DNA from: Minisyncoccota bacterium
Lineage (GTDB): Bacteria > Patescibacteriota > Minisyncoccia > Minisyncoccales > JAGOPM01
DNA length: 64,000 nt
Assembly (NCBI GenBank): GCA_041651395.1
Contig: JBAZJI010000001.1
Coordinates: forward strand, 507,920-571,919
Direction: 5' to 3'
This document shows positions 9,104-51,789 of this stretch, piece by piece (positions within the stretch are counted from its first letter, which is position 1; every line of letters begins with the position of its first letter). The notes under the pieces are model-generated. The model did no database searches, was not told the DNA's origin, and saw nothing but the letters and a program-made list of their open reading frames with translations. A program made the position numbers and the translations under genes.

Positions 9104-10003
9104 TTATGGGCAAGCCAAAGGAATTACTTGCTGCACTTTTAAGATAATTTCCTTGCTTGTTATTATTCCGCCAAAATCGGTTACATGGATACCGTCGCTT
9201 TCCCGCGCCAAACGCATTACACCTTTATTGTCAGGCAAATAATCAGAATAATTCCCCTTACTATCCTTAAGCGTTTCCCAAAGGGAAATAAATTTAATAT
9301 TTTCGTATTTGGCGGAGCTCGATGCATAAATAGAATTGAGTTTTTCCATTTTTTCACGATAATCGCTGCTTCTGGCAATCGGATTGCCTATCCAAAAAAC
9401 CTCGACATTTTCTTTGCTTAAAATATCCATGAACTCCGATACCCTGGAGAAATACAAGCTATCCCATTCGGGCGTGCCATAATATACCGCTTTATTACCC
9501 TCCAATGGTATTCCTTGCCCGTCATTAGCCCCAAACATGACATAAACTACATTTGGCTGGCGTAAAGCCAATAGTTCCTTAATCTCCTCCCGCCAATCAA
9601 AATAATCGCGCCTAGAAAGGCCAGTAGAAGGTTTACTGGTGCGATAAACAGTTGTCGAGACGCAGCCAAGCAAGGCCCGCTCTAATTCCACGCCCACTCC
9701 GCCATTTACAAAAGAATCTCCGGCAATCAAAATTGTAAAAGGCGCGCCAATTTCTTTTTTAACAGCAGTTGGCGCGTCAGCCGGGCATTTGCACTGGCAA
9801 GTTTCTTTGCCTAATGCCTTTGGAGAAAATTTGGCAACTCCTGCAAGCCATGGTGAAAGCCACGGCTTAAAGTAAGAGAACTTCATATTTTCCTCCCAAA
9901 AATAAAACTTTTGCGCCTGAAAAAAAACCGCCATAACCAGAATTAAAATATATGCCGCAATAATAACTCCCAAATCTTTTTTATCCATAGCCTTATTTTC
10001 CAT
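9104..10003 (-). CDS. SGNH/GDSL-type hydrolase-fold protein, likely partner of the MBOAT acyltransferase
   Basis: An N-terminal TM segment is followed by ILIAGDSFVNGG (GDS motif). I moved the start to the ATG at 10003 (MENKAMDKK), which avoids the 94-nt overlap with the upstream gene. Confidence 0.6.
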   Translation of the reverse strand: MENKAMDKKDLGVIIAAYILILVMAVFFQAQKFYFWEENMKFSYFKPWLSPWLAGVAKFSPKALGKETCQCKCPADAPTAVKKEIGAPFTILIAGDSFVNGGVGVELERALLGCVSTTVYRTSKPSTGLSRRDYFDWREEIKELLALRQPNVVYVMFGANDGQGIPLEGNKAVYYGTPEWDSLYFSRVSEFMDILSKENVEVFWIGNPIARSSDYREKMEKLNSIYASSSAKYENIKFISLWETLKDSKGNYSDYLPDNKGVMRLARESDGIHVTDFGGIITSKEIILKVQQVIPLACP

Positions 10004-10005
10004 AA

Positions 10006-11403
10006 TTAAAAACTGAAATAAATAAATGGCGGTATAAGCGAAGGTGAAAGCTCCACAATCAATATCACCAAAAGAGCGATGGTAATCGGCCTTAGCCATT
10101 GCTCTGAGGCGGCATAAAAATCACAAAAAATTTCCTTAATCGCTTTTTCGGTCGCGACAAGCAGCGCCCCCAACACTAAATACCAAACCGCACCGGTCAA
10201 AGCGGGGTCAAAAGCAAAGCGGAAACGAGCCAAGGCACCAAACATCTCGGTGGCCGTGGCTAAATCCGGAGAGCGGAAAAATATCCAAGCTAAAGCCACG
10301 AAGAGGAAATTAAAAATCCATGCAATACAGGGCAAAAAATACTTCGTCTTTTTATTATGGTGCGTAAGGGCATAAAATACGCTGCCCAAGCCATGGCAAG
10401 CGCCCCAGATGACAAAAGGCCACCCCGCTCCATGCCAGAGCCCGGAAACAACCATCACTAAAAATAAATTAAAATAATATCGCCACATTCCCACCCGATT
10501 GCCCCCTAACGGAATGTATAAATAATCGCGAAACCATGAAGAGAGCGAAATGTGCCACCGCCGCCAAAAATCTTGGATATTACGCGAAAGATACGGATAG
10601 TCAAAATTTATCGGCGACTCAAACCCCAAAAGCCCGGCAACACCAATGGCAATCTCGCTATAGCCGGAAAAGTCACAATAAATAGTCAAAGTAAATGCCA
10701 AAACGGCCAAAAGCGACTCAAAAGTGCCATAATTGGCGGGCACGGCAAAAACATTATCGACTACCAAAATAGTCAGCCAACTAGAAACCACTAATTTCTT
10801 AAAAAGCCCCATTAGAATAGAAAAAATGTGCTGACCGGGATTGCTGATATTTTTGGCCCCGCCGTTTTTTAATTGGGGCAAAAACTGATCGGCCCGCGCA
10901 ATCGGCCCACTTAACAGCTGAGGGAAAAAGGCCATGTAAAGCGTGAAATCGAGCAAAGACTTTTCCGGCTCATACTTTTTCCGATAAATATCTATGCAAT
11001 ACGAAATTGCACGAAAAATATAAAAAGATAAGCCAACCGGCAAAACAATATATAAAACCGCCAAAGAAGGTTTGAAGCCAAATTTTACAAATGCCTGTTC
11101 CAAAGCCGTGCGAAAAAAATCATAGTATTTGAAATACAGCAAAATCGCCAAATTACCCCCAACGCTCAAAGCCAAAAAAATTTTGCGGTATTTGTGGCTG
11201 CGCTGGATATAAATACCAAAAAGCCAATTAAAAACTGATAGACCAATCAAGATAACAACAAAATTCCAGCCCCAAACACCATAAAAAACATAACTCGCCA
11301 AAAGTAAAAATATCCGCCAAACAAGGGGCCATTTTTTTAAGAGCCAATTAAGCGCCAAAATTAACCCGAAAAATATAAAAAAATCCAAAGCCGCAAATAT
11401 CAT
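10006..11403 (-). CDS. MBOAT family O-acyltransferase (AlgI/DltB-like)
   Basis: Polytopic membrane protein with the block WRRWHISLSSWFRDYLYIPLGGNR, which contains the conserved His. Confidence 0.9.
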   Translation of the reverse strand: MIFAALDFFIFFGLILALNWLLKKWPLVWRIFLLLASYVFYGVWGWNFVVILIGLSVFNWLFGIYIQRSHKYRKIFLALSVGGNLAILLYFKYYDFFRTALEQAFVKFGFKPSLAVLYIVLPVGLSFYIFRAISYCIDIYRKKYEPEKSLLDFTLYMAFFPQLLSGPIARADQFLPQLKNGGAKNISNPGQHIFSILMGLFKKLVVSSWLTILVVDNVFAVPANYGTFESLLAVLAFTLTIYCDFSGYSEIAIGVAGLLGFESPINFDYPYLSRNIQDFWRRWHISLSSWFRDYLYIPLGGNRVGMWRYYFNLFLVMVVSGLWHGAGWPFVIWGACHGLGSVFYALTHHNKKTKYFLPCIAWIFNFLFVALAWIFFRSPDLATATEMFGALARFRFAFDPALTGAVWYLVLGALLVATEKAIKEIFCDFYAASEQWLRPITIALLVILIVELSPSLIPPFIYFSF

Positions 11404-15857: not shown

Positions 15858-15929
15858 GGGCGCGTAGTTCAGTGGTAGAACGCCGTCCTGATAAGACGGA
15901 GGTCGTAGGTCCGATTCCTTCCGCGCCCA
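15858..15929 (+). tRNA. tRNA-Ile (anticodon GAU) with an atypical T-arm
   Basis: Cloverleaf folded by hand. The acceptor is GGGCGCG/CGCGCCC and the anticodon loop is CTGATAA. The T-loop reads TCCGATT (C at position 55) and the T-stem has one U:U mismatch. Confidence 0.75.
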
Positions 15930-16004
15930 CATCAGATTCTGTGGCAAACTATACTTTATCAATTCTGCCTTTTGAATTCGCCAACTGCTTTGGCAGCTGG
16001 CGCT

Positions 16005-16075
16005 GGGCCTATAGTTTAGTGGTAGAACACCTCATTTGCAATGAGGAAACACCAGTTCGATTCTGGTTAGGTCCA
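16005..16075 (+). tRNA. tRNA-Ala (anticodon UGC)
   Basis: Acceptor GGGCCTA/TAGGTCC with the G3:U70 identity pair, anticodon loop TTTGCAA and T-loop TTCGATT. Confidence 0.9.
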
Positions 16076-16119
16076 CCCCGTTTAACATCAGAAAAACCCA
16101 TTGCCTCCCGGCTAATGGG

Positions 16120-28895: not shown

Positions 28896-30275
28896 TTATT
28901 CTGGATTAATTGCTTTTATAAGCCTGTCCACTCCCGCACTTATTTTATTATTGAGCGATGTTGGATAGCCCTTAGTTCCAATCTCCCAAGCCATGGGGAT
29001 AATATCTTTGAAAGCCCACAACAACCAAAGGCCGCTCAAGGCAAATAAGATCATCAAGGCCCATTCAGGAGCGGCTTCGCCGAATTTCTCTAAAGCCGAA
29101 GCGTCGGGTTTGCCCTCGGGCAAGCCTGCAGCTTTGGCTTCGGCCGGCGTGAGACTCTTGGCAACTTCGGCGGGCAAATTCGCCAAATTAATTCCCGGGC
29201 CGCCAAACTGCTTCTTGAGCTCCTCGGCCTCCTGAGGGGTTTTGGCGCTCGGCTCAATAGCCATTATTTCGTTTTTCCGCTTTTCGGCAGAGCGGGCATA
29301 TAAACTCCTTAGGTTCTCATTATCGGCGGCAAAGCGGTTAAATTCTTCGTCGCTAATCCGGTAAATTTCCTTTTGTGATTCGGCCGGGTCATTAATATTT
29401 TTTGTCCGCTCGGCAAATTTTTCATCCAAAGTGTTCTGCCCATTTATACTTTCATAAAGCTTTTTCCGAAGTTCAAAAGTCTTGCTCCATTCTTGGGACT
29501 TGCCTTCTAATAAATCTTTGTTGCCGGTCAAATCCAAGGCTTCGACTTCGTCCCCCAAATCATTGGATTTCTTATTTAGTTCCTTAAGTGCAAAAAACTT
29601 CGCGGCAATGCTGGGATCTTCTTTTGAGATGTTATTGGCAAGCGCTTCCAAAGTCTTAACGCTTTTTCTAATCTGGTCGTAATCAACATTCATCCAATTA
29701 GGCATATCAGCCCGGCCCTCGCCGGTGCCCGCCGGCTTTTCATTAAAAGCTCCTAGCTTCTTAGCCCAATGATAAAATACTTCTGGATTTTGCTCCTGCG
29801 ATAAATCAATGCTTATTTTCCCCTGGTTTTCCTCGCACCACTGCCGCGCAAATCGGCAATCCGCTTCATGGGCCGCCCCTTTAAGCTCCGTGGCTATGCT
29901 CGCCTTCTCCTCCTTTGATAATTTCGGTTTATCTTTATTAGCCCGGTCAAGCTCGGGTGACTGCATGACATGTTCCCCTTTAGCCCGCGCTTCGGCTGAG
30001 CCATAAAGATTTTCTAAATGAGTTTTAAGGCTAGCTACCCGCTCGGCTTTTTCAGCCTTCGTTTCTTTACGCGGCATGCCCGCAGTATTGGGTGTGGGCA
30101 CGGCATCAACACTATTATCGATTTTATTCGAGTTATCAGATTCTTCCTCTTGGTCTTCTTCCTCCTCTTCTTCCCCGTTATCAATAAGATTCTCATCTTC
30201 CGGGTCAAGACCATCGGTAAAAATATCTTTTTCTTTGTTTCTTGCCATATTGTTAGAAATTCCATCTTTGGGCAA
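28896..30275 (-). CDS. Hypothetical acidic/coiled-coil protein with C-terminal TM segments (459 aa)
   Basis: ORF track entry. It has a poly-Glu tract (EEEEEEDQEEE), a long charged region, and the C-terminal hydrophobic stretch WALMILFALSGLWLLWAF. Confidence 0.5.
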   Translation of the reverse strand: MPKDGISNNMARNKEKDIFTDGLDPEDENLIDNGEEEEEEDQEEESDNSNKIDNSVDAVPTPNTAGMPRKETKAEKAERVASLKTHLENLYGSAEARAKGEHVMQSPELDRANKDKPKLSKEEKASIATELKGAAHEADCRFARQWCEENQGKISIDLSQEQNPEVFYHWAKKLGAFNEKPAGTGEGRADMPNWMNVDYDQIRKSVKTLEALANNISKEDPSIAAKFFALKELNKKSNDLGDEVEALDLTGNKDLLEGKSQEWSKTFELRKKLYESINGQNTLDEKFAERTKNINDPAESQKEIYRISDEEFNRFAADNENLRSLYARSAEKRKNEIMAIEPSAKTPQEAEELKKQFGGPGINLANLPAEVAKSLTPAEAKAAGLPEGKPDASALEKFGEAAPEWALMILFALSGLWLLWAFKDIIPMAWEIGTKGYPTSLNNKISAGVDRLIKAINPE

Positions 30276-32760
30276 TATCAGCCTCCACTATTTCTTTGGC
30301 CAGCCCGTATTTAAGCTTAGAGATTTTCCTAATAGGTTCAACTATTGCCAAATTCCCCTTTTGTGGTTTTTTAGTAATCACCTTAAAAGAAGAAGTGATA
30401 TTATTATGCAGCATCATTCGGATAATAAAATTGAAGTTATCCAAATTCACTAAATCTTGGCGGGTAAAACCGGGCTCAAATTGCTTTTCCAAAAATTCGG
30501 CGTCCTGCACCCCAACCCGAAAAGAGGCGATCGTGCCGGCATTGCCCATCACAGCATTTTTTATCGGCTCCTGCAGCTGGGGCATGTATTGGTGCGCCAA
30601 AATCAAATTGAGCCGATATTTGCGCGCTTCCGAAAGTATGGTGGCAATATTATCAGTCGTAAAATTATGGAACTCATCAATGTAGAGATAAAAATCCTTG
30701 CGCGCCTCCATAGGCAAGTTGCCCCGTTGCATGGCGGCTACCTGCATCTTGGAAACCAGAATCAAACCCAAGAGCGAGCTATTCATCTCCCCGGTTTTAC
30801 CCTTGGAAAGATTAGCCAAAAATATTTTTTTGTTATCCATTATCTCGCGCAAATCAAAGCCCGAGCGCTGCTGGCCGATAATATTGCGCATCATCTCGTT
30901 TTCAACAAAGCGGCCAACTTTAGAAACCACATAACCCAACATATCGCTCTTAGTCTGCCCAACAGTCTGCTTCCATTCGCGCAGCCAGAAAGAGCGCACT
31001 AAAGGGTCGGTGACCATAGCCAAGCGGCTTTCCATATAATCCTCATCAGTAAAAATCCGAGGAATCTCCACTAAAGTGCCCAAATTATCCTTGTCGGCTA
31101 TTAAGGCCAGCATGGCATTACGCATATAATGCTCAAACATTGGCCCAATAATTTCTGGCGGGAAAAGCTTGGTAAATATCATTATCATTTCGGAAACGAC
31201 AAAATCCTTTTGCTCCGGCGTTTCCCATTCCAACATATTAAGCCCCACGGGGCGCTCCATATCGGAAGGCTCGAAGAGTACCACATCATCAACCCGCTCC
31301 CGCGGAATAATAGATAAAACATCTTCTACCAAATCGCCATGCGGATCGATAACGCCCACGCCCTTGCCAGCCATTATATCTTGGCGGATCATCTCATACA
31401 AAAGCGATGATTTACCAGTACCAGTTTGCCCAACAATATAAAAATGCCGTCGCCTATCATCTTCACTGGCAAAAAATACTTCTTTCTTTTCTCCGCGAAA
31501 AAGAGTTTGCCCAACAGAAACATCGCCGGTTTCCGGCAAAGTGGCGGGCGGCTCCACTTCCCGCGTCTTGGCCCACTTAATACTGGGGCTCAAAATAGTT
31601 GAGGCTGGGAAATGCAAAATACTTGCCAATTCCTCGGTATTAAGTACCATAGCTTGCGATTTCCGAAAATTCCTAAAGCTATAATCAAAAACGATTTTGT
31701 CTTCCGCTCCCCCGGACACATCCTTAAACTTAAATGCGTTAAAAGTAGAGGCAAATTGGGAAAAAGCGGCTTTCAGATCCTGTAAAATAAAATTTGAGCG
31801 GCTAATATCATCGGAAGCGGCCAAAAGCCGAATATTGGCATAAAGCGAAGGCTTCTGTAACTTCTTTTTTACCGCCTCCACCAGCATTTGGTCTGGCTCG
31901 CGCATCATTTGCTGCTGTTGCATGGCATAGGGGTTGTGCTGCCCAGGCTGCTGCGAATATGGCTGCTGCGGATTTTGCGGATAGGACTGCCCCGAATAAG
32001 GCCCGGACGGATAAAAAATTGGATCGCCACGCAAGCTCTTCAAAAATGATCCGGAAGCCGACTGGTCCGCAGACACATTAATCGCCCCAGCAAAACCGCG
32101 CATCAACTGGGCTACATACTGCGCCCCTTTGGTGCGAATGTCAAAATCCAAAGGTTGAATGACAATTTGGATAGCCGCTCCCTCATCATCGCGAATCTTG
32201 CTTAGCGAATTGGTAATAATAGAAATCGGATCGGATTGAAGCGTGGTATAGGTGGAAAGCGGCTGATAATAATTTTTCTCCTGCTGCACATAGGCGGCCG
32301 CCACGCGGCAACCAGGCTCAAAAACCGTATAGTCTTGGCCGACTCTTTCGACGACGGCCCCGGGATACACGCCTTGAATAACTTTTTCAACCGCGAACTC
32401 GTAAGATTTAGGAATAGCGATATAAAAAAGAATGTCGCTACCCCCAACTTCGGAAGCAATCTCTAAAGAAATTCGGGGCACATTACCCGCTAAGCTCTTG
32501 CCAAAATCATTCTCCTTAAGATAAAGAAAATTGGAGTAGACTTGCTCCATGGACCCAATTATCTGGCGGAAATCCTGTGGCCGTTCATCTTTTTTCTCAA
32601 AGCGCGGCATCTTAACCGAAAAAACTACGGTTTCCAAACTGGAAAACATTTTTGCCTCATTAAGCTTACGCAATAAAATCGCAACCATTAATAAAACGAA
32701 TATGCTGCTAAAAAACAGCAATACCAGCTGCCCGATTTGGATCAGGATCTCGGTATCCAT
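30253..32760 (-). CDS. Membrane-anchored TraD/TraG/VirD4-like (T4CP / HerA-FtsK-type) P-loop ATPase (835 aa)
   Basis: An N-terminal TM segment, a Q/P-rich linker, Walker A GQTGTGKSS, Walker B LYIDEFHNF, and the block RKYRLNLILAHQY...GNAGTIASFRV. Confidence 0.75.
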   Translation of the reverse strand: MDTEILIQIGQLVLLFFSSIFVLLMVAILLRKLNEAKMFSSLETVVFSVKMPRFEKKDERPQDFRQIIGSMEQVYSNFLYLKENDFGKSLAGNVPRISLEIASEVGGSDILFYIAIPKSYEFAVEKVIQGVYPGAVVERVGQDYTVFEPGCRVAAAYVQQEKNYYQPLSTYTTLQSDPISIITNSLSKIRDDEGAAIQIVIQPLDFDIRTKGAQYVAQLMRGFAGAINVSADQSASGSFLKSLRGDPIFYPSGPYSGQSYPQNPQQPYSQQPGQHNPYAMQQQQMMREPDQMLVEAVKKKLQKPSLYANIRLLAASDDISRSNFILQDLKAAFSQFASTFNAFKFKDVSGGAEDKIVFDYSFRNFRKSQAMVLNTEELASILHFPASTILSPSIKWAKTREVEPPATLPETGDVSVGQTLFRGEKKEVFFASEDDRRRHFYIVGQTGTGKSSLLYEMIRQDIMAGKGVGVIDPHGDLVEDVLSIIPRERVDDVVLFEPSDMERPVGLNMLEWETPEQKDFVVSEMIMIFTKLFPPEIIGPMFEHYMRNAMLALIADKDNLGTLVEIPRIFTDEDYMESRLAMVTDPLVRSFWLREWKQTVGQTKSDMLGYVVSKVGRFVENEMMRNIIGQQRSGFDLREIMDNKKIFLANLSKGKTGEMNSSLLGLILVSKMQVAAMQRGNLPMEARKDFYLYIDEFHNFTTDNIATILSEARKYRLNLILAHQYMPQLQEPIKNAVMGNAGTIASFRVGVQDAEFLEKQFEPGFTRQDLVNLDNFNFIIRMMLHNNITSSFKVITKKPQKGNLAIVEPIRKISKLKYGLAKEIVEADIAQRWNF

Positions 32761-46208: not shown

Positions 46209-48584
46209 TTACTTACCAAATATTTGTCTTAAACCTGCTAAATCGCCAGAACCGATTTCCTGTGCATAGTTCATTATCTCATTAGGGCACTGAGGGGCAA
46301 AATTTAAGTCGTTATACAAATCATTCAAACCTAAACAATGGCCGAATTCGTGAGGCATCACTCTTGTCCAATATTTAGAATTTTCATAATAATTGAAATC
46401 AAGGCCCTTAGAACTATTAATCTCAATATCGCACTCCCGGACATAATGTTTGCCGCTAGCCGGATCAATAGTATCATCAACCCATGTCCAAGCCGTGGTC
46501 CCACTTTCCCAAATTGATTCCGAATTATTGGCAATTTCCCAAAGACCGTTATAGTCCCATTGCCCGTTATTCTTTTGCATATTGACCCTCGCGCTCAGAG
46601 AAGTGCTGGTCGCGATGCTAACCTTTTCAAAAAACTTGGTGTTAAATTTATTCTCCCAAGCTTTTTGCGCCTCAAGGAGCGCCTGCAAAGAGACATCCTT
46701 GCTAGCAAAAAATTTAATGGGCTTAAAGTATTTGGCCGTACAGCCGCCGGGCTGCCCGCAAATAGTTTTGAAGCATTTCTCGGCCGGGATTTTGCAATCC
46801 TGTGGACAGTTTTGTATAGTTTCGCCACGCTCACACAGCTGATTAGGGCAATCAAATTCATTGTAATTGAGCCAAAGCCAAAAAATATTACCAATATATT
46901 TTTCCCCAACATCATTTTCCATTTCCGTAAAAACCATATAAGGAACCTGCTTATTAAACTTTTTATAATCCACAAAATAAGTTCCCCGATCATCAACTTC
47001 TACCCATTGGGTTGGCTCCAAATTAACATCCATACCTCCCGTCACAACTTTTACCCCGAGCCTTGCCCGTGCTTTGGCGGCCTTGCCTAAACCGATAACC
47101 GTGAAGTATAGCCGCACAGATCCGTCGGCGCGTTCCTCATAATCACCATAAAAAACCGACTTGAGCTGCAAAGAGATAGGATTGATGTATTCTTTACAGA
47201 TATTATTGCAAACCTGCGGGTCTTGATAGCAATTTTTCCCGGCCTGTGAGCCCCACCATTTTCTAACCGCAGCCTCGCAGGTGGCGCGATCTTTGTAATT
47301 TACCCAGGTCCCATTCTTTTGCTGCTGCCCAAAGGTCGGGCGGCACTGACCATTATTCTTCACGCAAAAATACCAAGTACCGGCCGGATCTTTCTTGTCC
47401 TGGCATTGCTCTTTGGATAATTTTCCGCCCTGCCTAAAATAATAATCAATACCGATTTTAGCAGTCGCCACGGAATCATATGAAGTTTTGGGCGAATCCA
47501 AATTCTGGGTAAAGGCTGTCCCGTTTTTATTTTTATTTATCCAGACTTTGCGATAGCACTCCTGCGTTGCGCCAACTTCAGGCTTCCCTTTGTAATAATC
47601 GCAAGAAATATCACAGGACAAAAATGTCGAATGGCAAATACCAGTAGTTAACTGCTCCCCCGAGGCATTAACTTCGGTTTTTTGGATATCGGCTTCGCAT
47701 TCGTCTTTGGATTGGTAAAGTTTTTTGCTGGGGCTGCACTTCCCATCACTCTTTTTGCAAAGCTGCCAATACATTCTAGTTGCCTCTGCACTGGGCTTGG
47801 CCGTAGTACTGCTACTGCTGCCACCAAATACTAAATTACCCTTAATAAATCCTGAATCTTGCTTGACGGCCAGCTGCACCCAAGAACCCTCTAAGTTTAA
47901 GGCTTTATCCAGAAATAAACTGACCTGCGTCGGGTCAAGAATCGGCACGGGCTTTACCTGAAAAGCGCTCTCTTTGCCTTCCTTAAACGAAAATTCATAA
48001 TAGCCCTCCAAGGGCTGTGTGCTGCTCGCAAAGTTAAGAATTTTGGAAGTTATTTTGTTCCCGAGAGGAGTTGACTCGATTGGCCCGGTTTTAATTTCCG
48101 GGGCCAAAATATTGCCTTGGCTGTCATAATAATTAAAACTGGGTTTCTTTTCTCCGCCCATTTTTGGCTTGGGCGCATTGGCGCTTGGACAAAAGGCATT
48201 GCTTTGGCTTGAGCCTTGAAAATTTTTTGCAAAAGCGATGATGCAATATTTTTTCCCGGCTGCTAATTTCACCGGCTCACTGAAAAATTTTCCCTCGGAA
48301 AACATTTGAACTTTGGCCGTTTCCTTGACCATGGGCTTATCTTGATCAAAATACACAAAATACACAGTCGCAAAACTGCTTACACCCTTTTGAGTGAGCT
48401 CTCCCTGGAATACGGCTCCGTTTGGATCCATACTCAGTGGCTCAAGCGTGGCCACTAAGGGCACGCCATAACCGGGCTGAAATTCCATATAAACTTTAGT
48501 TTCGGCCTGTGCCAAGCCACAAACAAAAAACAAGGCCAAAAATATGCCCAAAATTAAACCTGCGTTGAATGTGCGGCCACTCAT
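46209..48584 (-). CDS. Secreted zinc metalloprotease (HExxHxxGxxD metzincin-like) with two six-Cys modules (791 aa)
   Basis: The signal peptide is MSGRTFNAGLILGIFLALFFVCGLAQA. The C-terminal catalytic motif is HEFGHCLGLND (46320-46352), followed by a Met-turn candidate EIMNY. Confidence 0.75.
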   Translation of the reverse strand: MSGRTFNAGLILGIFLALFFVCGLAQAETKVYMEFQPGYGVPLVATLEPLSMDPNGAVFQGELTQKGVSSFATVYFVYFDQDKPMVKETAKVQMFSEGKFFSEPVKLAAGKKYCIIAFAKNFQGSSQSNAFCPSANAPKPKMGGEKKPSFNYYDSQGNILAPEIKTGPIESTPLGNKITSKILNFASSTQPLEGYYEFSFKEGKESAFQVKPVPILDPTQVSLFLDKALNLEGSWVQLAVKQDSGFIKGNLVFGGSSSSTTAKPSAEATRMYWQLCKKSDGKCSPSKKLYQSKDECEADIQKTEVNASGEQLTTGICHSTFLSCDISCDYYKGKPEVGATQECYRKVWINKNKNGTAFTQNLDSPKTSYDSVATAKIGIDYYFRQGGKLSKEQCQDKKDPAGTWYFCVKNNGQCRPTFGQQQKNGTWVNYKDRATCEAAVRKWWGSQAGKNCYQDPQVCNNICKEYINPISLQLKSVFYGDYEERADGSVRLYFTVIGLGKAAKARARLGVKVVTGGMDVNLEPTQWVEVDDRGTYFVDYKKFNKQVPYMVFTEMENDVGEKYIGNIFWLWLNYNEFDCPNQLCERGETIQNCPQDCKIPAEKCFKTICGQPGGCTAKYFKPIKFFASKDVSLQALLEAQKAWENKFNTKFFEKVSIATSTSLSARVNMQKNNGQWDYNGLWEIANNSESIWESGTTAWTWVDDTIDPASGKHYVRECDIEINSSKGLDFNYYENSKYWTRVMPHEFGHCLGLNDLYNDLNFAPQCPNEIMNYAQEIGSGDLAGLRQIFGK

Positions 48585-48664: not shown

Positions 48665-48847
48665 TTAGATGATTTCGTGGACAAAGCCGAGTTTCAAGGC
48701 CTCTTGGGCGCTGAAATACTTTTCATTGCGGTAAAGCTCGGCGAATCTGCCTGCGCTTAACTTTCTCCCACAGGCTTCGCGAATGATCCTTGGGGCGGGG
48801 TCATCATTCTTAATAAACGGCAATTCTACCCGTCTGGTCACTCTGAT
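48665..48847 (-). pseudogene. ClpP/crotonase-fold C-terminal remnant (60 open codons, no ATG)
   Basis: Manual translation ends ...IIREACGRKLSAGRFAELYRNEKYFSAQEALKLGFVHEII*. It aligns by eye with the ClpP C-terminus (..DRDNFLTAEEAKEYGLIDEV). Only GTG or TTG starts are possible, and it overlaps the 3' end of the neighbouring ORF. Confidence 0.3.
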
Positions 48848-50414
48848 CTAGTCGGAAATAATACTCTCCCGGTGTCGCAAAACTATAAGTAAAATCTTCC
48901 CCATCAGGGATTAGCCCGCTACGCAGAAAGTCCTCCCCGCCGCGAAAAACCTTAATGTCGTGCCACTCCCTGTCTAGATTTACAAAATGCACATCCGTAT
49001 TTTGAGGCACTTTCAAAAATATTGGCGTAATCTGCCCGTTCTTAATAACTATACTATTGATAAATTCATATTTACCAAGCAACAGATAATCATTAGGAAC
49101 AACTGCCACAATCCCCTCGTCTTCAAAAGCAGAATAGGCAGAGCGCTTGCTCGGATACTGCCAGCCGCAACGCGCGTTACAGTTCGTATTATTGGTTTCT
49201 TTTGTTTTGGAATCATTAAAAAGGACGTAGCGCAATTTTCCCAAAGAAGAATTGCCCGGTTTCCAACCATTATCGTTAACATAGAGATGATTCAGGTAAT
49301 TCTTGCCATTGGGCGCCAAATACTGGCCGTATCCCTGAAATCCAAGGACAACAAGTTGATGCTGGTTGCCCGAATCCCAAAACTTACACGTGTTCAAGGA
49401 TGGTCGGCACAAAATCACAAATGGAATATAGTTATCTGTATAAACCTGTTTTAGAGTCAGCGGACTGATGGGACCAATGTGCACCACGCTCATACCCAAT
49501 GTGCGCCACAAAGATTTTTCCGCCGGCCGAGTATTATACATATCTCCCCATAATCCGTATTTCAAAAACATTTCGCGGCAATCAATAGGATTGGGCTTGT
49601 TTTTATTTATCTTATCCCAATTAGCCCGGACCTTTGAATCGTTCTGATACCAATAATCAATCAGCATAGTAGCGGCCGCGTGACGACAGCCGACTACTTC
49701 ATAGCTGCCTTCCCCGGTCATAATCGTATTCCAAGGATAATCGTGGATATTGTAATATGGCACATTAAGCAAAACCGAACAGGCCGGATTACTTTCGGCT
49801 AAAATATTTTTATCTTTATCAAATATGAAAGCCTTATAACAAAAGCCACGGCTGGAATAGATATTAAGCCCGGTAAGCGCTATCGTGGCCTCGAAGTAGC
49901 CATTATTTTTAGGCGTGACGATTTTTGCCTTGGCGATGTCGCTAAAAAAAATCGGGGCGCTGCCCATAATATCCTTCTGAAAAAATTTCAAACCGATTTT
50001 TGCCCCCAAGGGCAGATTAGAGACAACACCGGAAAGTGCATAGCGTATGTCGCCCGTTAGCGAATAAATTCGCGGATCATTAATATTGACGTTTGGCACA
50101 ATACCCTTAAAAGTTTTGCAAGGATTACTGATAAACAGATTAATATTGGAATCCCCATAAATATCCTGTATTTCCTCAGAAAAACTGCCATCGGAGGTAG
50201 GGGTAATCTTCAAGGTATCGACATCCTCCTCTGCTACGATATGCAAGCAAAAATTTTTAGAGCTGCTCTCCACTTTGCCAAAAATCATTATCCGGCCATC
50301 CTGACGAGTATGGTAAACATACTCCTCGGCCCGGGCAGCACTAAAACAAAAAGAAAAAATTGCCAACGCAGCTAAAAAAATATTTTTCAATTTCCAGTTT
50401 GATTGATTATTCAT
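48810..50414 (-). CDS. Secreted protein with a C39-like cysteine peptidase core and a cupredoxin-like C-terminal domain lacking Cys (534 aa)
   Basis: I set the start at the ATG at 50414 (MNNQSNWKLKNIFLAALAIFSFCFSAARA signal), which avoids overlap with the upstream gene. VGCRHAAATMLIDYW and HQLVVLGFQG resemble the Cys/His blocks of peptidase C39-like proteins. Confidence 0.5.
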   Translation of the reverse strand: MNNQSNWKLKNIFLAALAIFSFCFSAARAEEYVYHTRQDGRIMIFGKVESSSKNFCLHIVAEEDVDTLKITPTSDGSFSEEIQDIYGDSNINLFISNPCKTFKGIVPNVNINDPRIYSLTGDIRYALSGVVSNLPLGAKIGLKFFQKDIMGSAPIFFSDIAKAKIVTPKNNGYFEATIALTGLNIYSSRGFCYKAFIFDKDKNILAESNPACSVLLNVPYYNIHDYPWNTIMTGEGSYEVVGCRHAAATMLIDYWYQNDSKVRANWDKINKNKPNPIDCREMFLKYGLWGDMYNTRPAEKSLWRTLGMSVVHIGPISPLTLKQVYTDNYIPFVILCRPSLNTCKFWDSGNQHQLVVLGFQGYGQYLAPNGKNYLNHLYVNDNGWKPGNSSLGKLRYVLFNDSKTKETNNTNCNARCGWQYPSKRSAYSAFEDEGIVAVVPNDYLLLGKYEFINSIVIKNGQITPIFLKVPQNTDVHFVNLDREWHDIKVFRGGEDFLRSGLIPDGEDFTYSFATPGEYYFRLDQSDQTGRIAVY

Positions 50415-50424
50415 ACAATTATCG

Positions 50425-51789
50425 CTAGATATCATATACCACTGCCCTTTCCACAATTTGGCTTTCAATGCCTAATTTTTCTTTTATGCCATCTTGAAGC
50501 ATTAGCTGGCCCTTTTCCTCTCCGTGATTGATAAATACTTGTTGGGGCTTGGGGGTCTGCATTTGTTTTAACCAATGCAAAAGCCTTGGCTGGTCGGCAT
50601 GCGAAGAATAGGCTCCGACAGCCTTTACTTTGGCGCGCACCTTTACCTCTTCCCCATTGATATTAACCGTCTGCGCCCCTTCCATCAGCTCTCGGCCCAA
50701 AGTCCCCTCGGCTTGAAAACTAACGATAAGCAAAAAATTATTACTATCGGGAAGATATTTTTTTAAGTGGTAAAGTATGCGCCCGCCATTACACATGCCC
50801 GAACCGGCCAAAATCACTTTGGGGGGCTTGGTCTCATTAATCTTTTTCGATTCCTCGGGCGAGGGAGTATATTCCAAACCGCGGAAAGCAAATAAATCAT
50901 CGTCCTTCTTCAGCTTCTTTTGCGCCTCCTCATCAAACCAATCTTCGTATTTACGATAAATATCCACGGCCTTAATAGCCAAGGGGCTATCCAAAAACAT
51001 TTTTACTTTAGGCAGTTGATGAGCCTCCACCATAAAATTAAGCTCGTATAAAATTTCTTGCGAGCGCTCCAAGGAAAAAACCGGCAGCATTAATGTTCCG
51101 CCGCGGGCAATGGATTCTTCAATGGCTTCTTTAAGTATGAGAGAACGTAATTCAGGCGCTTCATGTATCCGGCCGCCATAAGTCGCCTCGCAAACCACAT
51201 AATCAGCCCCGCTTATAATATCGGTATCTTTAACCAAGGGCACGGGGCTATTGCCCAAGTCTCCGGAAAAAACTATTTTCTTTTTTTTGCCCTCTTCTTC
51301 AATTAGAATTTCTATGACCGCGGAACCCAAAATATGCCCCGCATTACGCATTACCACCTCAATACGGCCTTCGGGGCGAAAAGAGCGGCCATATTCTTTG
51401 GTTTCAAAATTCTCCAACAAACCACCGATGTCTTCGGCTGTAAAAAGCGGCTTGATATTTTTTGTCCGTGCTTCCTCGGCAATAATCTTGGCCGAATCCA
51501 AAAAAGTGATTTCTGCCAATTCTTTAGTGGGCGGCGTGCAATAAACTTTTCCGCTAAAACCCTCACTAAAAAGCCGAGGCAATCTTCCGCTGTGGTCGGC
51601 ATGCGCATGAGTAAGCAAAACAAAACTGATTTCTTTGGGTTCAAAACCAAACGGCTTTAGATTTTCATCCGTGGCAAATTCTATCCCCTGGAAAAGCCCG
51701 CAATCGACTAAAAATTTTATGCCATTGGCTTCGACGAGCGCACAAGAACCGGTAACAGTTTTGGCCGCGCCATGAAAAGAAATCTTCAT
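50425..51789 (-). CDS. MBL-fold beta-CASP RNA-metabolising hydrolase (RNase J/CPSF-like)
   Basis: LTHAHADHSGRLP (HxHxDH), a beta-CASP-length insert, and a C-terminal SSHAD motif. Confidence 0.85.
   Translation of the reverse strand: MKISFHGAAKTVTGSCALVEANGIKFLVDCGLFQGIEFATDENLKPFGFEPKEISFVLLTHAHADHSGRLPRLFSEGFSGKVYCTPPTKELAEITFLDSAKIIAEEARTKNIKPLFTAEDIGGLLENFETKEYGRSFRPEGRIEVVMRNAGHILGSAVIEILIEEEGKKKKIVFSGDLGNSPVPLVKDTDIISGADYVVCEATYGGRIHEAPELRSLILKEAIEESIARGGTLMLPVFSLERSQEILYELNFMVEAHQLPKVKMFLDSPLAIKAVDIYRKYEDWFDEEAQKKLKKDDDLFAFRGLEYTPSPEESKKINETKPPKVILAGSGMCNGGRILYHLKKYLPDSNNFLLIVSFQAEGTLGRELMEGAQTVNINGEEVKVRAKVKAVGAYSSHADQPRLLHWLKQMQTPKPQQVFINHGEEKGQLMLQDGIKEKLGIESQIVERAVVYDI

Follow-up and report, generated by a model that had tools for sequence, protein, structure and literature searches.

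A shared six-cysteine module in a TasA-like fiber-type protein and a probable metzincin-type protease of a Minisyncoccota bacterium

What does a small cysteine-rich module do when it occurs in two otherwise unrelated secreted proteins of one bacterium? The question is raised by a stretch of 64,000 nucleotides from a Minisyncoccota bacterium (GenBank assembly GCA_041651395.1, contig JBAZJI010000001.1, positions 507,920 to 571,919 of the forward strand), referred to here as the window. In the window, a secreted protein that is probably a zinc peptidase (protein A) carries two six-cysteine modules, and, at a distance of 42 kb, a protein with a TasA/camelysin-like N-terminal domain (protein B) carries nine tandem six-cysteine repeats. 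An initial annotation, made from the letters of the window, had proposed that the A modules and the B repeats are one lineage-specific extracellular module shuffled between a fiber protein and a protease, and that it may target both proteins to the same surface structure or ligand. Members of the Candidate Phyla Radiation (CPR; Patescibacteria) live attached to other cells, and their surface and secreted proteins, which are largely unannotated, probably mediate this lifestyle. Here, we report that the A modules and the B repeats are homologous, describe the family to which they belong, and weigh what the module may do.

Evidence that the A modules and B repeats are homologous

The two modules were initially placed within residues 271 to 465 of A, i.e., at positions 47190 to 47774, and both the coordinates and the sequences given for them are correct: residue 271 begins at base 47774 and residue 465 finishes at base 47190. 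The module formula proposed at that time captures the architecture accurately and errs in a single gap, since Cys4 and Cys5 are separated by six residues that include the Y/H and not by the spacing written as C(Y/H)-x6-7-C. Counted as residues between successive cysteines, the spacing is x6/x12/x20/x6/x3 in module 1 of A, x6/x21/x15/x6/x3 in module 2, and typically x6/x11-12/x7/x6/x3 in the repeats of B.

A profile hidden Markov model (HMM) of the nine B repeats, which finds these repeats as nine domains of 50 to 59 bits each, picks exactly two segments of A and nothing else in that protein (10.2 bits). Among the 726 six-frame open reading frames (ORFs) of the window, A is its top non-self match (E = 0.033). 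None of 2,000 whole-protein shuffles of A scored as the real sequence did, and neither did any of 2,000 shuffles confined to the module regions (0/2000). When every cysteine was held fixed and the other residues were permuted, 1 of 2,000 shuffles did so; therefore, non-cysteine residues carry signal, and not the cysteine spacing alone. The score, though low, withstands these controls. The HMM-HMM comparison suggested in the initial annotation gave a significant result as well: hhalign, run with each A-module profile (four orthologs) against the B repeats, aligned all six cysteines end to end, with P values of 1.2e-5 and 1.9e-6.

As a guard against circularity, separate profiles were built from A modules only, from B repeats only, and from third-party modules only (99 modules, none of A or B type), with 724 window ORFs serving as decoys. 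With the third-party profile, B gave nine domains at an E value of 1e-48 and A gave two domains at 6.4e-15, while the best decoy reached 0.75. The A-only profile matched B at 1.1e-5, and the B-only profile matched P0043, an A-like protein, at 4e-6. Forty third-party modules from 19 proteins were significant for the A-only profile and for the B-only profile alike, and no decoy matched. Long-loop and short-loop modules, the forms seen in A and in B, respectively, stand side by side within the proteins P0024, P0044, P0045, and P0048.

Taken alone, the direct pairwise signal between A and B is marginal. The idea that the shared spacing is a coincidence of cysteine-biased sequence, with the segments of A and B unrelated, can draw on the 10-bit score of A against the B-repeat HMM and on a broader B-type profile that misses A itself (E = 8.6); it has next to no probability and is refuted by the shuffles, the cysteine-fixed ones included, by the full-length hhalign alignments, by the third-party profile with its clean decoys, and by the doubly recognized modules, and a joint alignment moreover yields a confident common fold (see below). 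Because of the third-party profile, the doubly recognized modules, and the presence of both loop forms within single proteins, we regard it as established at the sequence level that the modules of A and the repeats of B are homologous.

Judged by score, the nearest neighbors of the A modules are third-party long-loop modules, and those of the B repeats are B orthologs and the short-loop modules of P0024, P0045, and P0048. On this sequence comparison, the A and B modules are different subtypes and not each other's closest relatives. We considered whether A and B had recently exchanged modules directly and rejected this, as these nearest-neighbor scores place the two with different relatives.

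Sequence anatomy and predicted fold of the module

The module is about 45 to 65 residues long and follows the pattern C-x6-C-x(10-21)-C-x(7-24)-C-x6(8)-C-x3-C, which both A modules fit. In an alignment of 140 nonredundant modules, the modal spacing was C-x6-C-x12-C-x15-C-x6-C-x3-C. The A modules belong to the common long-loop type, each with one enlarged loop, and the minority form (23 of 115 complete modules) is the B type, in which x7 separates Cys3 from Cys4. Outside the cysteines, the conserved positions in the alignments are aromatic residues immediately ahead of Cys1, T/S following Cys2, Y/F some five residues ahead of Cys3, E/Q following Cys3, and Y/H/F following Cys4. The long-loop form has a conserved motif, YLPGxTTG, in the Cys3-Cys4 loop; it is missing from B, in which this loop has 7 residues instead of 15.

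All six cysteines were present in 115 of the 140 modules. Cys1 and Cys6 were jointly lost in 16 modules from several proteins and Cys2 and Cys5 in 3, while Cys3 and Cys4 were never lost. Because the cysteines disappear in pairs, a nested set of disulfides, C1-C6, C2-C5, and C3-C4, is implied. AlphaFold2 modeling of A module 2 with the 140-module alignment gave a mean predicted local distance difference test score (pLDDT) of 92.4 and a predicted template modeling score (pTM) of 0.76, with strands at residues 4 to 7 and 12 to 15, a helix at 32 to 46, a strand at 47 to 52, and a helix at 55 to 62. The predicted fold thus starts with a beta-hairpin and continues with one helix, one strand, and another helix. 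In this model, Cys1 and Cys2 lie cross-strand in the hairpin, and a single helical turn separates Cys5 from Cys6, which would fit the pairing suggested by co-loss: Cys1 and Cys2 of the hairpin would be stapled to the CxxxC pair (Cys6 and Cys5, respectively) on the last helix, and Cys3-Cys4 would close a loop of variable length (7 to 24 residues).

No Pfam or NCBIfam family was found to cover the module when A, B, the isolated module region, and 34 carrier proteins were scanned. A sequence-profile search of the PDB returned only Kunitz domains (boophilin and TFPI), at E values of about 3. Foldseek against the PDB gave nothing significant; the best E value was 0.95, and most of the top 50 were Kunitz/BPTI chains with template modeling (TM) scores of 0.40 to 0.51. 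When the module was compared by hhalign with Kunitz sequences, the probability was 39%, in another register than that of HMMER: one program aligns Cys2/Cys3 to C30/C51 and the other aligns Cys3-6 to C14/C30/C51/C55. Membership in the Kunitz/BPTI family (PF00014) was rejected on the grounds of nonsignificant matches, inconsistent registers, different spacing, and a different inferred disulfide topology.

Distribution and partner domains

An exhaustive HMMER search with a 15-module profile against 1.84 billion cluster representatives found 35 carrier clusters at E values of ≤1e-3, of which 16 were at ≤1e-10. A word-indexed homolog search with the 140-module alignment gave no matches, as short cysteine-rich modules share too few 5-residue words. 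With this narrow distribution, and with the checked contigs being bacterial and CPR-like, the module appears lineage specific, as initially proposed. Several carriers can occur in a single genome: the records of P0019, P0022, and P0025 give one and the same longest contig (136,755 bp), and those of P0020, P0035, and P0072 share another (301,968 bp).

Nearly all full-length carriers start with a signal peptide or membrane anchor (an N-terminal hydrophobic segment), and their partner domains are diverse. The module occurs with a C-terminal papain-type Peptidase_C1 domain (P0019, P0020, P0030, and P0036), with an A-type HExxH domain (A, P0001-3, and P0043), with a TasA-like N-terminal domain (B, P0004, P0026, and P0049), with a C-terminal dockerin, Dockerin_1 (P0023, P0032, P0039, P0040, and P0046), and with SpaA/SdrD_B and a C-terminal anchor (P0028); further partners are Flg_new_2 (P0042), DUF4434 (P0033), and NAGPA (P0038), with glycosidase-like domains among them. 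Copy number ranges from about 1 to 10 or more in tandem arrays and differs among related proteins; B has nine copies and P0026 has three, and the papain types have two to seven. The central part of the initial proposal is thereby borne out: a single homologous extracellular module has moved between unrelated secreted proteins, a TasA-like fiber-type protein and a metzincin-like protease among them.

The module-bearing proteins P0021, P0060-P0063, P0068, and P0074 (loci L011-L013) carry the NCBI label "Candidatus Pacearchaeota archaeon." The contig of P0078 carries GroES/GroEL and YceG, and P0078 falls in the P0031 cluster, which includes the Pacearchaeota-labeled P0074. The contigs of P0026, from a cluster with the same labeling, repeat the gene order of the B locus in the bacterial window. 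Given GroES/GroEL, YceG, and this window-like bacterial gene order, an archaeal origin was judged doubtful, and the label is probably a binning or classification error.

Protein A and its locus

The features of A and B are listed in Table 1. The N terminus of A, MSGRTFNAGLILGIFLALFFVCGLAQA/ET, is a Sec signal peptide as judged by eye on the sequence. A word-based search found three homologs of A, at 92, 49, and 30% identity, and all 12 module cysteines are invariant among them, down to 30% identity. Invariant columns make up 48% of module 2, 33% of the catalytic region, and 22% of the whole protein; module 2 and the end of the preceding insert form the most conserved segment of the A family.

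Table 1. Features of proteins A and B, with positions in the window
Feature	Position	Strand	Residues and description
Protein A gene	46209..48584	minus	791-aa ORF; secreted, probably metzincin-type zinc peptidase; holds two modules
N-terminal beta-rich domain of A	48177..48503	minus	aa 28-136; also in module-bearing papain-type proteases
Six-Cys module 1 of A	47595..47771	minus	aa 272-330; C276, 283, 296, 317, 324, 328
A-family-specific insert domain between modules	47379..47594	minus	aa 331-402; invariant cysteine pair C343/C394
Six-Cys module 2 of A	47190..47378	minus	aa 403-465; C407, 414, 436, 452, 459, 463
Second Cys-rich mini-motif of A	46740..46850	minus	aa 579-615; C-x4-C-x2-GE-x4-NCPxDC...; invariant in A family
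Zinc-binding motif HEFGHCLGLND of A catalytic domain	46320..46352	minus	aa 745-755
Protein B gene	2022..4766	minus	914 aa; TasA/camelysin-like N-terminal domain, nine six-Cys repeats, C-terminal domain of ~190 aa
Nine tandem six-Cys repeats of B	2598..3929	minus	aa 280-723; short-loop subtype

The profile of the N-terminal beta-rich domain (aa 28 to 136) matches the papain-type proteins P0019 (E = 1.5e-7) and P0020 (E = 5e-6), with decoys at ≥0.34. The N-terminal domains of A and of P0019/P0020 are homologous and, therefore, one chassis, composed of a signal peptide, beta domains, and six-cysteine modules, bears interchangeable metzincin-like or papain-like catalytic heads. The insert between the modules (aa 331 to 402) was considered as a further shared domain and rejected, as its profile matches A-type proteins only.

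The catalytic region of A has a motif of the metzincin form HExxHxxGxx(H/D), in which H745, E746, H749, and D755 are invariant in four homologs. The Asp variant of the motif agrees with the aligned snapalysin motif HETGHVLGLPD, and a candidate Met-turn is provided by the invariant CPxEIMN, which includes M771. Matches to known families lie below their cutoffs: Peptidase_M10 at E values of 0.015 to 0.17 (cutoff, 24 bits) and the M6 domain model at 7.5e-4 (19.5 bits; cutoff, 110.8). The match to snapalysin structures was weak (E = 0.89). An AlphaFold model of full-length A, made from four sequences, had a pLDDT of 43, which is too poor for domain packing or the catalytic fold. Read from its sequence, A is probably a secreted zinc-dependent protease of the metzincin type.

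The second cysteine-rich mini-motif of A, CPNQLCERGETIQNCPQDC..., is unrelated to the six-cysteine module, and aa 579 to 615 had no Pfam match; similar motifs, sometimes in tandem, are visible in P0025, P0035, P0038, and P0043.

In all homologous contigs, the gene for A is flanked by a conserved gene for a secreted protein of 528 to 552 aa and by rplJ-rplL; it is a stable chromosomal gene rather than part of an island. In the window, the gene directly upstream of A encodes a 552-aa secreted protein (48810 to 50468, minus strand), for which the matches to Peptidase_C39_2 and to cupredoxin-like domains were weak. Its synteny with A extends to the P0002 contigs (L002-L004), and in L005 a 660-aa gene with no Pfam match takes its place. 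The gene for P0078, a module protein at locus L013, likewise adjoins a C39_2-like gene.

Protein B and its locus

The N-terminal domain of B scores below the cutoff against PF12389 (TasA/camelysin, Peptidase_M73; E = 0.051), and its N-terminal homologs carry PF12389. A word-based search found one full-length homolog of B. Apart from cysteines, the nine repeats share little more than a handful of structural residues (Y, T, Y, G, and Y).

Adjoining B is a gene for a 193-aa TasA-like protein (1204 to 1785, minus strand), which matches PF12389 at 3.5e-13 and also a SipW-type signal peptide model. The B-related contigs (L006, L007, L011, and L012) hold more TasA/camelysin-like paralogs, an S24-type peptidase, and lamin-tail-domain proteins. 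The B locus looks like a TasA-like fiber system in a CPR bacterium, and this TasA-like cluster supports the label of fiber protein for B by association. A few genes from B is a pair comprising an MBOAT acyltransferase and a DUF459/GDSL-like protein (9104 to 11403, minus strand), which is also found beside the B-type genes in L006 and L011; this recurrence suggests a linked function in surface-polymer acylation.

The remainder of the window is mostly occupied by housekeeping genes and is bacterial, with bL12/uL10, PBP2, MraZ-type neighbors, and DnaB. No disulfide-forming enzymes were seen by Pfam on about 34 window ORFs. Adjacent genes for tRNA-Ile(GAT) and tRNA-Ala(TGC), a pair found in the rRNA spacer of many bacteria, are located at 15858 to 16078 on the plus strand; within the window, no rRNA was found. 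Among the housekeeping genes is one (30253 to 32760, minus strand) for an 835-aa protein that has type IV coupling-protein domains of the VirD4/TraG type.

Function of the module

The shared targeting of A and B to one structure or ligand, as raised in the initial annotation, is not supported, given the different subtypes, the diverse partners, and the variable copy number. Since the Cys3-Cys4 loop, which holds the most conserved non-cysteine motif of the family, differs between the A and B types, a common ligand for the two appears unlikely from their sequences. The diversity of partners and the variation in copy number speak for a connector of general use and not for a targeting signal.

We consider the module to be, with fair though far from complete confidence, a disulfide-stapled general connector of secreted proteins, because its architectures are promiscuous, its copy number is variable, and conservation within arrays is limited to fold-determining residues. 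As such, it would space and rigidify the functional domains of secreted and surface proteins of CPR bacteria and would probably make the linkers resistant to proteolysis. In B, the stalk of repeats would hold the C-terminal domain away from the TasA-like fiber. In A, two copies bracket the A-specific insert, and this assembly lies between the beta domains at the N terminus and the protease. Because module 2 and the end of the insert are the most conserved part of A, the unit of insert plus module 2 probably has an extra and more specific role there, for example, as an interaction or regulatory surface. The rigidity remarked on in print for cysteine-rich surface proteins of CPR bacteria (PMC4736985) agrees with a connector.

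Several points weigh against this account. The connector function is argued from architecture, and the disulfide pairing was deduced from the joint loss of cysteines and from the predicted secondary structure. If a Cys1-Cys6 bond forms, it would bring the ends of the module close together, so that an array would look more like a string of beads than like a straight rod. The third-party modules were gathered with a mixed A and B profile, a circularity that the 40 doubly recognized modules mitigate. Furthermore, the proteins P0023, P0032, and P0046 consist of hardly anything but modules and a dockerin, and in them the module looks like cargo rather than a spacer; the long-loop form has its conserved surface motif, YLPGxTTG; and the conservation of A module 2 exceeds the needs of a passive spacer.

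The last three of these points would be explained if the module is a binding or targeting element that recognizes the surface of a host cell, a glycan, or the TasA-like fiber and brings proteases, fiber subunits, and dockerin proteins to it. Module 2 of A also displays exposed aromatic residues (KWWGS and TFG), and attachment roles have been proposed for cysteine-rich secreted CPR proteins (PMC4736985). We hold a binding role to be unlikely, though it is the foremost of the alternatives: A and B are of different subtypes and the conserved loop is absent in B, the repeats of one protein share almost only fold-determining residues, copy number varies freely, and no likeness to known binding domains was found in Pfam, NCBIfam, or the PDB. 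In another reading, which we likewise find rather doubtful, the module makes up a separate fold family restricted to CPR bacteria and is an active element instead of a passive spacer, either a Kunitz-like latency element or inhibitor governing the metzincin-like and papain-like proteases secreted by these episymbionts or an adhesion unit that anchors proteases, fibers, and dockerin proteins on the surface of the host cell. Were the module such an active element, the conserved insert plus module 2 would be the functional core of A.

Less probable still is that the module is a Kunitz-like protease regulator that keeps the attached metzincin-like or papain-like protease latent or shields the bacterium's own surface proteins. 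Kunitz domains are the best PDB matches by profile and by Foldseek alike, proteases make up 8 of the 35 carrier clusters (four A type and four Peptidase_C1), and in P0019, P0020, P0030, and P0036 the modules end 10 to 20 residues before the papain domain, with no I29 propeptide detected. Yet none of the Kunitz matches is significant and the HMMER and hhalign registers differ, as do the cysteine spacing, the inferred disulfides (C1-C6, C2-C5, and C3-C4 versus C1-C6, C2-C4, and C3-C5), and the order of secondary-structure elements (b-b-a-b-a in the module). Most carriers, moreover, have no protease domain, and the A modules lie more than 150 residues from the catalytic domain.

Whichever function applies, the module family is a recurrent and confidently modeled block with a cysteine pattern, a likely disulfide map, and a list of partners, and it makes giant "hypothetical" proteins readable; no long-standing question is opened by it.

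Comparison with known systems

Searches of the literature on the module and on TasA in Saccharibacteria returned nothing specific and some general remarks on cysteine-rich CPR proteins. A CPR genome paper on Peribacteria described large secreted cysteine-rich proteins and suggested rigidity or attachment for them (PMC4736985), and in Roizmanbacteria one gene for a secreted cysteine-rich protein adjoins a lamin-tail-domain gene (PMC6509639), an adjacency also seen at the B-type loci. Both papers treat whole proteins and their cysteine content, and the module, its spacing, its fold, and its distribution are not defined in them (PMC4736985, PMC6509639).

Among structurally known families, Kunitz/BPTI is the top-ranked in both the PDB profile and the Foldseek searches, and the likeness extends to a length of about 55 to 60 residues, six cysteines, an aromatic-rich hairpin followed by a helix, and a CxxxC in the C-terminal helix. 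Kunitz domains have the pattern C-x8-C-x15-C-x7-C-x12-C-x3-C, with disulfides 1-6, 2-4, and 3-5. The module differs in its spacing (x6/x12/x15/x6/x3 versus x8/x15/x7/x12/x3) and has an extra helix and strand. In the CS-alpha-beta fold of defensins and scorpion toxins, a helix CxxxC is bonded to a CxC on a single strand of a beta-sheet. The module would likewise have a helix CxxxC pair bonded to two sheet cysteines, as suggested by C1-C6, C2-C5, and the predicted structure, but its partner cysteines would be on the two strands of a hairpin, and there was no sequence or Foldseek match to CS-alpha-beta proteins.

In the EGF-like repeats of eukaryotes, tandem disulfide-rich modules serve as spacers of extracellular proteins. 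In common with these repeats, the module has six cysteines in what would be three disulfides, forms tandem arrays of variable copy number, lies between functional domains, and conserves few residues; it differs from them in having no Pfam EGF-type match, a predicted fold with helices, bacterial (CPR) hosts, and disulfides that appear to be nested. The module is a rare small-domain family, outside Pfam and NCBIfam, of a familiar general kind.

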